A DNA stretch of 58,165 bases, taken from positions 67,155-125,319 of the forward strand of contig CAYOAT010000002.1 in NCBI GenBank assembly GCA_964402215.1, given 5' to 3'. Each line of letters starts with the position of its first letter. Position 1 is the first letter of the stretch. A program made the position numbers and the translations under genes. This document shows positions 2,610 to 6,103 of this stretch, piece by piece. Under the pieces are notes generated by a model. It saw nothing but the letters and a program-made list of their open reading frames with translations. It was not told where the DNA came from and searched no databases. Origin of the DNA: an uncultured Candidatus Saccharibacteria bacterium. GTDB taxonomy: Bacteria; Patescibacteriota; Minisyncoccia; Phycocordibacterales; JAACPR01.

Positions 2610-3910
2610 ATCAAAAACTTTCACCTTTTCAAATAGTTTTACTTGGCCTCATGGTTGTTGCGATTGTCGGTGGAGTTATTGTATTTGCAACTAAAAGAAA
2701 TAAATCCGCTGAATCTAAAATTCCAATTGATGTTTGGGGGACAGTTCCTCAAGAGATAATGAGTAATTACCAACTTAAATTAAATGAAGACCAAGAAGAA
2801 AATATTGTAAATATAATTTACAAAGAAATATCTGCCGACACATTTGAAAACGAATTGATAGAAGCTTTGGCTTCAGATAGTGGTCCAGACGCTGTTATTT
2901 TGGATGATGAAATGCTTTTGAAGCACGAGAATAAATTATTTTTAATTAGTTATGAATATTATAGCCAGAAACAGTTTAAAGATAATTTCATTGAGTCAGG
3001 TGAAGTTTTACTAAGAAAAGATGGATTTCTTGGTTTTCCAATTACTGTTGATCCTTTGGTCTTATATTGGAATCGTACAATGCTAAATAATGAGGGAATT
3101 ACAAACCCACCAAAATATTGGGACGACTTACTTTCTCTTGTACCAAGAATTGTTAAAAAAGATTCCTCCGGAAATATCAGTCGTTCCGCTGTTGCATTTG
3201 GTGAATATGAAAATGTTAGTAATGCAAAAAGCATGTTAATCGCACTGATTCAACAAGCCGGTAACAATATTATATTCAGAGATTTAGTGGAAAATAATTA
3301 TTATGCAAATTTGTCTGATAAATTTGGTTTCGCACAACGCCCAGCTGATGCTGCATTAAATTTTTATACACAATTTGCGAACCCAACAAAAGATGTTTAT
3401 TCATGGAATAAATCAATGCCAAATTCCAGGGAATTATTTATTTCAGGAGATTTGGCATTTTATTTCGGTCTAGCAAGTGAGAGAAAAGAAATAATTCAAA
3501 AAAACCCAAATTTAAATTTTGATGTTGCAATTTTGCCACAATCCAGATCAAGTGCAGAGAATTCAACAGTAGGTAAAATGCGTTTTATTGCTATTTTGAA
3601 TAAATCACAAAAAATTGCTAATGCATTTTCAACAATAACTAATATGGCCGGGCCACAATCTATTGAATTACTATCCAATGTAATGCAGGTAGCACCAATT
3701 CGAAGGGATGTTAGCGTTGATTTTACTTCTCAATCACACATGGATGTGTTTCATAAATCAGCTTTAATTTCTAGAGTTTTCTTGGATCCAAATAAAATTG
3801 AAACTAATCAAATTTTTAAAAAGATGATAGAATCTGTAATGATCGGCAGCCAAAGTGTCTCGCAATCTGTTGATCGAGCCAATCTAGAGCTTGAAACATT
3901 ATTTAAATGA
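2606..3910 (+). CDS. Membrane-anchored extracellular solute-binding protein (sugar ABC SBP-like)
   Basis: N-terminal TM helix, ALASDSGPD (AGxGPD-like), DPLVLYWN, PKYWDDL, FISGDLAFYFG, FDVAILPQ. Overlaps its neighbours through ATGA junctions. Confidence 0.8.
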   Translation: MNQKLSPFQIVLLGLMVVAIVGGVIVFATKRNKSAESKIPIDVWGTVPQEIMSNYQLKLNEDQEENIVNIIYKEISADTFENELIEALASDSGPDAVILDDEMLLKHENKLFLISYEYYSQKQFKDNFIESGEVLLRKDGFLGFPITVDPLVLYWNRTMLNNEGITNPPKYWDDLLSLVPRIVKKDSSGNISRSAVAFGEYENVSNAKSMLIALIQQAGNNIIFRDLVENNYYANLSDKFGFAQRPADAALNFYTQFANPTKDVYSWNKSMPNSRELFISGDLAFYFGLASERKEIIQKNPNLNFDVAILPQSRSSAENSTVGKMRFIAILNKSQKIANAFSTITNMAGPQSIELLSNVMQVAPIRRDVSVDFTSQSHMDVFHKSALISRVFLDPNKIETNQIFKKMIESVMIGSQSVSQSVDRANLELETLFK

Positions 3911-4299
3911 AAATGAAAGATTTTAAAAAAATATTATTTTGGTCTGCAGTGTTCGGTGCCCTATGTTTTTTGCCAGTAATTACTAACGCAGGTCTCGTTA
4001 CTTGTAGTTCCGTTCAAACATGTAATTTTAATGCCCTTGGCTTAATGTTTGTAAAGGTAATTAAGTTTGTCTTGAATTTAGGAATGACACTATCGGCAAT
4101 TGGTTTTGCTTGGGCAGGTGTTTTGTATTTAACGGCTGGAGGTGATACAGGAAAAATTGCCAAAGCCCATGAAATTTTTAAAAAAATATTAATTGGTTTC
4201 ATTATCGCTCTGCTTTCGTTTATTATTGTTGATTTAATTGCCAAGGCCTTTGGTTTGGACAGTTCTATTCAAGCCTTGTTTAATAGTTTTATTCCATAA
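3907..4299 (+). CDS. TrbC/VirB2-like pilin 1
   Basis: Signal-like N-terminus, then a two-TM hairpin with AWAGVLYLTAGGDTGKIAKA...ILIG. Confidence 0.75.
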   Translation: MKMKDFKKILFWSAVFGALCFLPVITNAGLVTCSSVQTCNFNALGLMFVKVIKFVLNLGMTLSAIGFAWAGVLYLTAGGDTGKIAKAHEIFKKILIGFIIALLSFIIVDLIAKAFGLDSSIQALFNSFIP

Positions 4300-4311
4300 T
4301 TAACAAAAAAT

Positions 4312-4677
4312 ATGTCAATTTTAAATAATGTAAAATATATTATTTCAATCGCTGTTTCATTTATTATACCATTTAACGTGATGGCCCAGGGCGCAATCGG
4401 GAGTAGCGGATTAGAAAACCCAATCGGCCCCGATAGTTTGGCGGAGGTAGTGGCTGCGGTGTTGAGTGTTGTTTCAACTATTGGTGCTGTACTAGTTGTT
4501 TTAGCAATTATTTATGCTGGATTTCTTTTTGTTACTGCACAAGGTAATAGTGATAAAATTCAGGAAGCAAAAACAATCTTTTTATGGACAGTTGTTGGAG
4601 CAATTGTTTTACTTGGCGCAAAGGCACTAAGCGAGATTATTGTTGAAACGGCTAGGGGTCTTGGAGTTACGGTTTAA
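4312..4677 (+). CDS. TrbC/VirB2-like pilin 2
   Basis: LENPIG, then IIYAGFLFVTAQGNSDKIQEAK...TVVG two-TM hairpin. Confidence 0.8.
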   Translation: MSILNNVKYIISIAVSFIIPFNVMAQGAIGSSGLENPIGPDSLAEVVAAVLSVVSTIGAVLVVLAIIYAGFLFVTAQGNSDKIQEAKTIFLWTVVGAIVLLGAKALSEIIVETARGLGVTV

Positions 4678-4682
4678 TTATT

Positions 4683-5072
4683 ATGATTATTAAACAAACA
4701 CTATTAATACTTGCTGGTTTCTTTTTAAACGCAAATCAAGTTTTTGCAAATGACATAAGCGGGCCGATAAATGATTTTCTTAATATATTAGGTGGAAGAA
4801 ATAGTGGATCTGGTCGCTTTACCATTATAAATTTATTGATAACGGTTTCTATTTTAATATTTATATATGGTTTACTTAAATATCTTTTTTCTGATGAAGA
4901 GAAAAAAAGAAAAGAAGGAATAAATACCATAACTTATGGTCTAATTGTTCTTGTTGTTATGGTTTCTGTTTGGTCCATTGTCGGCACAATAAGAAGCACT
5001 TTTTTTTCAGGTTCAACAGACTTACAGCCACGCGCAGGGTCACGACAATCAGTTCAACAATTTATTAAATAA
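4683..5072 (+). CDS. VirB2-like pilin 3
   Basis: FIYGLLKYLFSDEEKKRKEG...YGLIVLVVMVSVW. Confidence 0.7.
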   Translation: MIIKQTLLILAGFFLNANQVFANDISGPINDFLNILGGRNSGSGRFTIINLLITVSILIFIYGLLKYLFSDEEKKRKEGINTITYGLIVLVVMVSVWSIVGTIRSTFFSGSTDLQPRAGSRQSVQQFIK

Positions 5073-5081
5073 TTAAATTAT

Positions 5082-5360
5082 ATGGCAGCAGCATCAAATT
5101 TTAGTGGATTAGTAAATCATATTATCTCGTATGCTTCAGGTATAGTAGCTGTTATCATTGCTCTTGCTTTAGTGGTGTTTTTATATGGTCTTGTCGGTTA
5201 TATTTCAAATTCAGATGATGAAGATAAAAGATCAGAAAGTATTTCTTATATGACAGCCGGTTTGATTGGCCTCTTTGTAATGGTTTCAGTGTGGGGAATT
5301 TTAAATATTTTGACAGACACATTTGGTGTTAATTTTGAAGTGCCACAGATAACATCATAA
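5082..5360 (+). CDS. VirB2-like pilin 4
   Basis: FLYGLVGYISNSDDEDKRSES...AGLIGLFVMVSVWG. Confidence 0.72.
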   Translation: MAAASNFSGLVNHIISYASGIVAVIIALALVVFLYGLVGYISNSDDEDKRSESISYMTAGLIGLFVMVSVWGILNILTDTFGVNFEVPQITS

Positions 5361-5477
5361 TTGTAATCCACATATATAGTGCTATTTAAATATCAGATTT
5401 GTTATATAATTATATACAAGCTATTAGTTGTTATAGATTATAAAATTAATAGTTTAATTATATATAATTAAGACTTT

Positions 5478-5819
5478 ATGATGAAATACATTATTGGTTT
5501 GGTATCAGTGGTTGCACCTACAATTGTTCTCGCAGCTGATCTTGGAGACACAATAGATACAATTTCTGGGCTTATTGCAAGCCTCATACCATTAGTTATT
5601 GGAATCGCTGTAGTTGTCTTTATCTGGGGTATATTAAAATATGTTGTTGCTAAAGACGAAGATTCTCAAAAAGAAGCAAGAAGCGTCATGATTTACGGTA
5701 TTATTGTACTGTTTGTTATGGTTGCTGTTTGGGGTCTAGTTGATTTGCTTGCAAATACTTTGGGTGTTGATGCTGACGGCTCAACAGGTGGAATTCGTGC
5801 CCCAGGTATTCCTAGCTAA
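5478..5819 (+). CDS. VirB2-like pilin 5 (candidate major subunit)
   Basis: Signal peptide ending VLA-A, FIWGILKYVVAKDEDSQKEAR...YGIIVLFVMVAVWG. Has its own AT-rich upstream region with TATAAT. Confidence 0.75.
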   Translation: MMKYIIGLVSVVAPTIVLAADLGDTIDTISGLIASLIPLVIGIAVVVFIWGILKYVVAKDEDSQKEARSVMIYGIIVLFVMVAVWGLVDLLANTLGVDADGSTGGIRAPGIPS

Positions 5820-5857
5820 TCTTGCTCAAGTATTTTTCTGACTAATAAATTAAAATT

Positions 5858-6103
5858 ATGACAGCACTAAACAGTTTTATTACGAAGCTATCAACATTAA
5901 TTGTAAACCCATTAATAAAATTAATGTTTGCTGCGGCACTCATTGTTTTCTTGTGGGGTGTTTTTGATTACATCAAAAATGCGGATAATGCCGATGATAG
6001 AGAAACTGGAAGAAGTCATATAATTTGGGGTTTAGTCGGAATGTTAATTATGGTTTCTGTGTTTACTATAATTGAAATTGCTTTAAATACAGTTTACGGC
6101 TAG
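5858..6103 (+). CDS. VirB2-like pilin 6
   Basis: FLWGVFDYIKNADNADDRETGR...WGLVGMLIMVSV. Confidence 0.72.
   Translation: MTALNSFITKLSTLIVNPLIKLMFAAALIVFLWGVFDYIKNADNADDRETGRSHIIWGLVGMLIMVSVFTIIEIALNTVYG

Follow-up and report, generated by a model that had tools for sequence, protein, structure and literature searches.

An ordered array of six VirB2-like hairpin proteins in a Patescibacteria genome

Patescibacteria account for much of the diversity of uncultured bacteria, and arrays of VirB2-like pilin genes are already known to be very common among them. What does such an array build, are its members exchangeable variants or distinct parts, and where is the machinery for their assembly encoded? 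These questions are raised by a 58,165-nucleotide stretch of contig CAYOAT010000002.1 (positions 67,155 to 125,319; hereafter the window), from an uncultured Candidatus Saccharibacteria bacterium. Six small tandem genes in the window, here named g1 to g6 in 5′ to 3′ order and all on the + strand, had been read in an initial annotation as VirB2/TrbC-like pilins, forming either a chromosomal, non-conjugative filament or host-contact apparatus, or a repertoire for antigenic or host-range variation. We lean, without great confidence, towards the view that they encode a fixed and ordered set of hairpin subunits, which a type IV secretion system (T4SS) encoded elsewhere in the genome would assemble into a heteromeric structure for host contact.

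Six hairpin proteins in a fixed order

The initial annotation had described six open reading frames (ORFs) of 81–130 amino acids between positions 3907 and 6103, each with two transmembrane (TM) segments. All six were recovered at exactly these coordinates, and hydropathy places two long hydrophobic helices in every one of their products:

3907..4299, + strand: g1, pilin-like hairpin of slot 1; 130 amino acids, signal peptide, cysteine pair (C33 and C39) before helix 1
4312..4677, + strand: g2, pilin-like hairpin of slot 2; 121 amino acids, signal peptide, NP-x-G motif
4683..5072, + strand: g3, pilin-like hairpin of a middle slot; 129 amino acids, signal peptide
5082..5360, + strand: g4, pilin-like hairpin of a middle slot; 92 amino acids, no signal peptide
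5478..5819, + strand: g5, pilin-like hairpin of the penultimate slot; 113 amino acids, signal peptide
5858..6103, + strand: g6, minimal pilin-like hairpin of the last slot; 81 amino acids, no signal peptide

The signal-peptide-like segments at the N termini of g1, g2, g3 and g5 end in A-x-A-like sites (TNA, VMA, VFA and VLA, respectively), and the alanine at the predicted −1 cleavage position of g5 (Ala19) is nearly invariant; g4 and g6 start straight with mature-type sequence. An AlphaFold2 (AF2) model of g5 consists of a signal helix followed by a two-helix hairpin (helices 22–57 and 61–94), with a predicted local distance difference test (pLDDT) score of 76.5 overall and of 84–87 across the hairpin.

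Pairwise identity across the six proteins is only 18–40%. Four of them, g3 to g6, are clear paralogs (27–40% identical, E 2e-9 to 5e-19), and g1 and g2 are remote both from these and from one another. The profiles of the two subfamilies are nevertheless homologous over the hairpin core (hhalign 96.8%, E 2.6e-10), so the proposed division into two subfamilies holds. The motif given for the first, AG..(Y/F).TA.G....I..A, is exact in g1 and g2. The one given for the second matches none of g3 to g6 in its literal form, and only a looser version, [YW]G...Y...[VI]MV[SA]V, is found in all four.

We compared the array with related loci, taken as the best 80 of 222 confirmed loci (one genome per GTDB species, with the g2-family alignment as query); adding a further contig of the window's own population (L001) and the loci of the two nearest species (L004 and L008) gives 83. 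Array genes in these loci were called with hidden Markov models (HMMs) built from the two subfamily alignments, and orthologs of g1 and g6 were picked up by the family HMMs in all of them. The best 80 come from Nomura-, Campbell-, Kaiser-, Wolfe-, Zambryski-, Taylor-, Lloyd- and Tagabacteria. The window's proteins come from a contig of 186,427 bp, and those of the nearest relatives from contigs of 744,552 bp (JGI) and 554,705 bp (JAKLEX010000001.1), which are labelled Paceibacterota or Patescibacteria.

Synteny in the two nearest species runs from GyrA through a methyltransferase, a solute-binding protein (SBP), the six pilins and two convergent ORFs of no known family to RbfA and IF-2. Each of g1 to g6 finds its best match at the same array position in both species, with identities of 63/64% for g1, 68/54% for g2, 44/41% for g3, 71/65% for g4, 63/63% for g5 and 85/65% for g6. 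Orthologs are thus 41–85% identical, compared with 18–40% between paralogs; g3 is the least and g6 the most conserved slot. Slot-specific features travel with the genes: the C-x5-C pair is conserved in the g1 orthologs of both species, and their g4 orthologs are leaderless too.

The same order extends across the class. The array is on one strand in nearly all related loci and comprises five or six genes in 60 of the 83. A g1-type gene comes first wherever this could be scored (55/55) and a g2 type follows; then come one to four genes of the g3, g4 or g5 type, with a g5 type penultimate in 67 loci and a g6 type last in 69 of 79. Sequences like the first motif are confined to g1 and g2 types, and those like the second to g3–g6 types. 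An NP[LIVMF] motif marks 71 of 90 g2 types and 49 of 79 g6 types, and g1 types are rich in cysteine. Such an array is far beyond chance, since it is found with its genes in this order in more than 80 other genomes. Between independent assemblies of the window's own population we found no true substitution across 12.6 kb, which shows only that the locus is not hypervariable.

Together, slot-by-slot orthology, class-wide order, slot-specific motifs and the lack of strain variation argue strongly against an interchangeable repertoire and in favour of separate parts that form a fixed set. Slot orthology is also consistent with the major and minor subunits that had been suggested. The strict positional orthology across species and the class-wide gene order are a modest new observation; neither is mentioned in the survey of VirB2-like arrays by Quinonero-Coronel et al. 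2025 (PMC12102498).

Kinship with pilin families and known arrays

The pilin assignment was borne out by HMM searches. PF18895 (T4SS_pilin) is the best Pfam match for all six proteins (E 2e-5 to 5e-9). Four exceed its gathering score of 26.6 bits (g2 31.8, g3 31.1, g4 33.1 and g5 36.6, the last with the best E-value of the six, 4.7e-9), and two fall slightly short of it (g1 25.6 bits, E 1.3e-5; g6 25.0 bits). The six also give weak Pfam matches to many unrelated TM families. The most TrbC/VirB2-like of them is g2, which alone matches PF04956 (TrbC/VirB2), at 22.6 bits (E 1.3e-4) against a gathering score of 27.9. Among 48 relatives of the g2 family, 35 match PF04956 at E 1e-3 or better (best 9.1e-13) and 44 match PF18895. 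A third model, NF045849 of NCBIfam, describes the ‘Mbov_0395 family pilin-like conjugal transfer protein’ of Mycoplasma integrative and conjugative elements (ICEs). It scores g4 above its cutoff of 40 bits (41.0) and four others below it (g2 24.6; g3 30.6, E 1.9e-7; g5 23.7; g6 32.3, E 5.7e-8); g1 gave no match to it. The VirB2/TrbC label of the initial annotation therefore stands at the level of a superfamily, through these three profiles, and not as family membership, since g2 itself stays below the PF04956 gathering score. Judged by its profiles, the array is linked to canonical VirB2 at the superfamily level only.

Canonical VirB2/TrbC proteins (A. tumefaciens VirB2, RP4 TrbC, R388 TrwL and pKM101 TraM) are, as here, small proteins with a long leader, two hydrophobic helices and a short charged loop, and the g2 type shares PF04956 similarity with them. 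In the canonical layout, exemplified by R388, one pilin gene stands directly upstream of virB3–virB4 in a diderm conjugative or effector system, whereas here six genes occur in a monoderm, two of them leaderless, with no virB3 or virB4 adjoining. The Mycoplasma proteins of NF045849, matched by g2 to g6, are two-helix proteins of 80 amino acids from monoderm (MPF-FATA) transfer systems; they are single genes within mobile ICEs, unlike this six-gene chromosomal array with no mobile element. A search of 72,556 plasmids with g2 (tblastn) returned a single weak match (E 0.6).

Two other pilin identities were considered and rejected. None of the six matches N_methyl (PF07963), which rules out a type IV pilin of the T4P/T2SS class, and hhalign probabilities of at most 2.3% (profiles A2 and A3 against PrgF, A2 against PrgG) rule out PrgF and PrgG of the monoderm pCF10 T4SS. 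The window does encode a pilin of the T4P class elsewhere, in which an N-terminal methylation motif is fused to a Laminin_G_3/ConA-like lectin domain (46977–48350, + strand); its product is likely an adhesive minor pilin of a separate pilus system.

The closest known array is that of Candidatus Southlakia epibionticum ML1 (Saccharimonadia; Wang et al. 2023), in which SEML1_0014–0019, six PF18895 genes for proteins of 103–185 amino acids, are individually essential by Tn-seq and adjoin genes for VirB6-, PrgI- and VirB4-like proteins, with no SBP or methyltransferase (PMC10633639). Like the present array it is chromosomal, on one strand and without a relaxase, and its six tandem PF18895 proteins are divergent. 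It lies inside a T4SS cluster, however, whereas the array described here lies away from T4SS genes in an operon with an SBP and a methyltransferase. Arrays of this kind had been said to be reported from the candidate phyla radiation (CPR), and 441 of them, with 2–11 genes and about 25% mean identity, are indeed catalogued, most abundantly in Microgenomatia and Saccharimonadia (PMC12102498). That survey was centred on virB4 neighbourhoods and suggests versatility towards host strains (PMC12102498). It used the same HMMs (PF18895 and PF04956) and frequently found pilin genes away from virB4; with six tandem genes at 18–40% pairwise identity, the present array meets its description. A 2025 review highlights six divergent pilins and speculates on a pilus conduit, and PF18895 has been described as the commonest domain of freshwater-specific protein clusters. 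With arrays catalogued and one of them experimentally essential, the initial annotation overstated its case in calling this locus its best candidate for an uncharacterised system.

Fusions give a further view of the hairpins. Related loci contain 33 array members of at least 200 amino acids; in 21 of these the hairpin sits at the extreme C terminus, behind a signal peptide and an inserted domain, and in the other 12 an extra domain follows the hairpin. The clearest case is a 2,170-amino-acid protein within a pilin array (locus L069, 9747–16259), in which a signal peptide and about 2,000 residues of Ig/cadherin/PKD/He_PIG adhesin repeats precede a C-terminal pilin hairpin (residues 2072–2168, iE 7e-30). 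Because both termini point outward in a VirB2-like topology, such extra domains would be surface domains anchored by the hairpin. An exhaustive search of a representative protein library, in which the g3–g6 type alone accounts for 12,559 representative clusters, returned as top matches chains that combine one signal peptide with two or three hairpins of the g3/g4/g5 type (P0224–P0238). Their units are 34–55% identical to each other and are joined by Gly/Ser/Pro linkers, and a frameshift or read-through is possible at the DNA level. By a Rosetta-stone argument, these multi-hairpin fusions suggest that different paralogs stand side by side in one assembly. Natural adhesin–hairpin and two- or three-hairpin fusions are a modest new observation; they fit a heteromeric filament, and a membrane ring almost as well.

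Operon partners and the whereabouts of secretion genes

The array belongs to one tightly packed, transcription-unit-like block that runs from the methyltransferase and the SBP through g1–g4, a spacer and g5–g6 to a terminator:

2079..2609, + strand: small class-I SAM-dependent methyltransferase, 176 amino acids (Pfam Methyltransf_31/25/11, PCMT); first gene of the conserved unit
2606..3910, + strand: TM-anchored family-1 (MalE-type, oligosaccharide-class) SBP homolog, 434 amino acids (SBP_bac_1, E 1.9e-13)
5361..5477, + strand: intra-operon spacer, 117 nt, with a TG-extended −10-like element, TTTGTTATATAAT
6135..6166, + strand: intrinsic-terminator-like hairpin with a 14-bp stem (8 G–C pairs) followed by a T-run, 32 nt past the g6 stop

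The methyltransferase stop overlaps the SBP start by 4 nt, and the SBP stop overlaps the g1 start (ATGA). Gaps from g1 to g4 measure 5–12 nt, that between g4 and g5 117 nt and that between g5 and g6 38 nt. A spacer before the penultimate gene is itself a shared trait: its median length is 108 nt, compared with 9.5 nt at other junctions, it is the largest gap in 63 of 78 loci, and the −10-like element is common to the two nearest species. A stable RNA structure in the 117-nt spacer was not supported (z −0.25); judged from its sequence, the spacer may act as an internal promoter or attenuator. A search for RNA runs that cover the locus returned none. The hairpin downstream of g6 is a putative terminator by consensus match and would end the operon.

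The SBP model is confident (AF2, pLDDT 88.5) and shows an N-terminal TM helix (residues 7–34) followed by a MalE-type bilobed fold. Its top Foldseek matches are sugar and oligosaccharide SBPs (E ~1e-21, TM-score 0.65–0.8), and its PDB profile match is 4r9f (1.3e-16). A TM anchor replaces the lipobox in 78 of 80 SBP homologs, and the family, with at least 965 members at E 1e-10 or better, is more conserved than the pilins. No ABC permease or ATPase gene occurs in the window, and no such family is recurrent within 10 kb of the array in the 80 related loci.

When large ORFs around the related arrays were clustered, the recurrent neighbours were the SBP (77 of 77 assessable loci), the methyltransferase (70/75) and GyrA (66/68), with median distances of 2 nt from the SBP to the first pilin gene and of 3 nt from the methyltransferase to the SBP. 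The linkage is reciprocal, as three of three distant SBP homologs (41–46% identity) lead into a five- or six-gene pilin array, and TrbC-only homologs likewise occur in a gyrA–SBP context. We infer that the methyltransferase and the pilins may be functionally linked. That the array in this lineage always shares an operon with a TM-anchored SBP, and usually also with a methyltransferase, is a modest new observation; its SBP/methyltransferase/gyrA context is mentioned neither in PMC12102498 nor in a full-text literature search.

Is the assembly machinery then absent? Pfam assigns the annotated window ORFs of at least 120 amino acids to housekeeping families (GyrA, IF-2, ClpB, ThrRS, DnaE, RNase HII, NusB, RNase III, SMC, RNase R, S16, TrmD, RpoB, RpoC, DnaG, RpoD, HisRS, TGT, UvrABC and Ddl), plus a sortase and the N_methyl pilin. 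None of these ORFs encodes a VirB4, VirD4, relaxase, integrase or transposase, in line with the initial annotation, which had listed no VirB4, VirD4, relaxase or mobile-element gene. The five window proteins without a Pfam match showed nothing T4SS-like, even when matches up to E 1 were admitted. Contig L001, which comes from a JGI metagenome and is 99.8% identical to the window, reaches 7.9 kb further upstream; those roughly 8 kb contain genes for FtsZ, FtsA, YbeY, a HisRS paralog, signal peptidase I, Pth, an S1 protein and an MBL-fold protein, and no T4SS gene. On the downstream side, the extension recovered was a contig of only 1.8 kb. The window and the 8 kb upstream are free of T4SS and mobile-element genes, and the description of the locus as chromosomal and non-conjugative holds. 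The apparently split gyrA of this contig was set aside as a scaffold gap of Ns (7912–7922); the window starts right after it, inside gyrA.

The flanks of the related arrays were nearly as bare: no VirB4 was found among all large ORFs in 1.4 Mb of flanking DNA, and no VirB4-sized family is recurrent there. One locus (L027) carries a 578-amino-acid type IV coupling protein (TrwB_AAD_bind, 13824–15560) about 5 kb downstream of its array; in none of the other 79 loci did a T4SS-type ATPase occur within 10 kb. At the level of genomes, five of six relatives with the same syntenic array are VirB4-positive (Table S1 of PMC12102498), and the sole negative one is an incomplete 550-kb assembly. VirB4 occurs in 2,417 of 3,035 Patescibacteria assemblies (80%), and among the 1,948 assemblies with both kinds of gene, pilin genes lie near virB4 in 1,135 and away from it in 813 (PMC12102498). 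In Paceibacteria, virB4 tends to adjoin dnaA/dnaN. Because five of six array-bearing relatives and 80% of assemblies are VirB4-positive, the absence of T4SS machinery most likely describes the window and not the organism. The earlier statement that this machinery is lacking thus stands for the window and its flanks and was overstated for the organism.

Several further features of the region were recorded. Just past the operon, two convergent and abutting membrane proteins of no known family (6192–6737 and 6737–7831, both on the − strand; 180 and 363 amino acids) have a GC content of about 44%, compared with about 33% for their neighbours, and are found in just 4–6 of the 83 related loci; a counterpart in locus L089 gives a weak Band_7/SPFH match. 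The pair may have been acquired specifically in this lineage. Four tRNA genes (Leu-tag, Lys-ctt, Leu-taa and Cys-gca; 7985–8476, − strand) lie between it and rbfA/infB and add to the GC bump. The sortase-domain protein (16680–17333, + strand; 217 amino acids) stands amid housekeeping genes, and NusB is fused to a NUDIX hydrolase domain in one ORF of 304 amino acids (23829–24743, + strand). The population has two HisRS-like genes, 24% identical over 201 amino acids, one in the window (42835–44067, − strand) and one in contig L001 (2844–4073, − strand), about 4 kb upstream of the window start.

Assembly models and what the array may mean

In the model that we favour, the six genes are the form that the VirB2-like pilin array of Patescibacteria takes in Paceibacteria: an ordered set, inherited vertically, that encodes six non-interchangeable helical-hairpin subunits. 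Four of these (g1, g2, g3 and g5) are predicted to enter the membrane through Sec and to lose their leaders at the A-x-A-like site, and g4 and g6 to insert without a leader. The mature proteins are predicted to be two-helix hairpins of about 75–105 amino acids, with a short charged loop in the cytoplasm and both ends outside the cell. From this membrane pool the phylum's chromosomal monoderm-type (MPF-FATA-derived) T4SS (VirB4, VirB3/PrgI and VirB6), encoded elsewhere in the genome, would assemble a heteromeric structure on the cell surface, which most likely takes the form of a pilus-like filament for contact or exchange with the host cell. The bulk subunits might be g2 and/or g5, with g1, g3, g4 and g6 as specialised minor subunits. 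The weakest step is the last, in which the co-operonic SBP would serve as a surface glycan receptor alongside the structure.

Several points weigh against this model. To our knowledge, no filament of these proteins has been imaged in any Patescibacterium. The PF04956 score of g2 is below threshold, and 79 of the 80 related loci have no T4SS gene within 10 kb of their array. Foldseek found nothing significant for the g5 model in the PDB (best E ~1; an archaeal conjugative pilin ranked 44th), profile searches of PDB sequences with both subfamilies gave nothing significant (pKM101 TraM at E 0.27), and hhalign against R388 TrwL, a weak single-sequence template, reached 0.5–4%. Because two-helix hairpins are too simple for such comparisons, we regard these failures as uninformative, and not as negative, for pilin identity. 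Part of the SBP linkage is probably frozen synteny, since GyrA is nearly as constant a neighbour; what singles out the SBP over GyrA is its presence in every assessable locus and its coupling at 0–4 nt. Finally, monoderm T4SSs are generally without a known pilus (PMC12102498, PMC10633639).

This last point also favours a reading that we consider unlikely but take seriously, in which the hairpins form a membrane-embedded hetero-oligomer, either a c-ring-like ring or channel or an inner-membrane part of the T4SS translocon, in place of an extruded filament, possibly docking the anchored SBP for the uptake of host-derived compounds. The plain TM hairpin fold with no pilin-specific Foldseek match would suit it, as would the constant presence of an SBP that has no ABC permease close by. 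Chains of two or three fused hairpins are reminiscent of duplicated c-subunits, and in structure-based annotation the best ECOD match of one S. epibionticum array protein is the ATP-synthase c subunit (PMC10633639). Yet the profile links lead to pilin families (PF04956 and NF045849) and not to channel families, four of the six proteins have cleavable-looking signal peptides, as VirB2 does, and there is no relation to PrgF or PrgG of a monoderm T4SS. The adhesin fusion of about 2,000 residues likewise suits surface display, although a simple membrane anchor is compatible with it too. Rather doubtful, in our estimate, is a novel module in which the hairpins of Paceibacteria form a fixed, six-slot and genetically autonomous surface unit, with the SBP as its physical partner (glycan receptor, base or tip) and the methyltransferase, in a further part of this proposal, as an enzyme that may modify the subunits. 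If it were true, the operon would encode a sugar-recognising organelle for contact or uptake and not spare parts for a distant T4SS.

Independence from any T4SS, with the methyltransferase, SBP and hairpins forming a surface module that self-assembles or needs Sec/YidC only, is improbable. The distance of the arrays from T4SS genes speaks for it, as do the near-invariant operon partners and the one array-bearing relative scored VirB4-negative, but that relative is an incomplete scaffold set, the other five are positive, and the homologous array of Saccharimonadia sits inside a T4SS locus. VirB4 is, as far as we know, required by all VirB2-family polymers, which counts further against it. The same embedded Saccharimonadia array argues against generic small membrane proteins that have nothing to do with secretion and match the HMMs through their hydrophobic composition only, a reading that we hold to be very improbable. 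Weak matches to unrelated TM families, and pairwise and structural comparisons with real pilins that are not significant, are what it would predict, but PF18895 is the top match of all six, PF04956 reaches 9e-13 in relatives and the independent NF045849 model matches five of the six. We give equally little credence to the interchangeable repertoire for antigenic or host-range variation offered in the initial annotation. Tandem, highly divergent paralogs would fit it, and a similar role is suggested in PMC12102498, which cites the tandem, divergent VirB2 paralogs of other host-associated bacteria, Bartonella and Anaplasma phagocytophilum. Those copies are regarded as variants that can stand in for one another in immune evasion, whereas here each slot is conserved in its own right and has its place in the order: orthologs matched one to one by position in different species are much more alike than paralogs, order and slot-specific motifs are fixed across the class, and independent assemblies show zero substitutions. 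All six S. epibionticum homologs are, moreover, individually essential and hence not redundant.

For the window itself, the array is an ordinary and expected feature of a Parcubacteria-type genome. Its wider interest lies in the fact that the T4SS and pilin array are essential for life on the host in the single genetic study available. The locus makes the question of what such an array builds more tractable, as it offers distinct and conserved parts, a conserved order and spacer, natural fusions and a constant SBP partner. From these follow the hypotheses of a heteromeric assembly, of outward-facing termini and of a possible glycan receptor as its partner.

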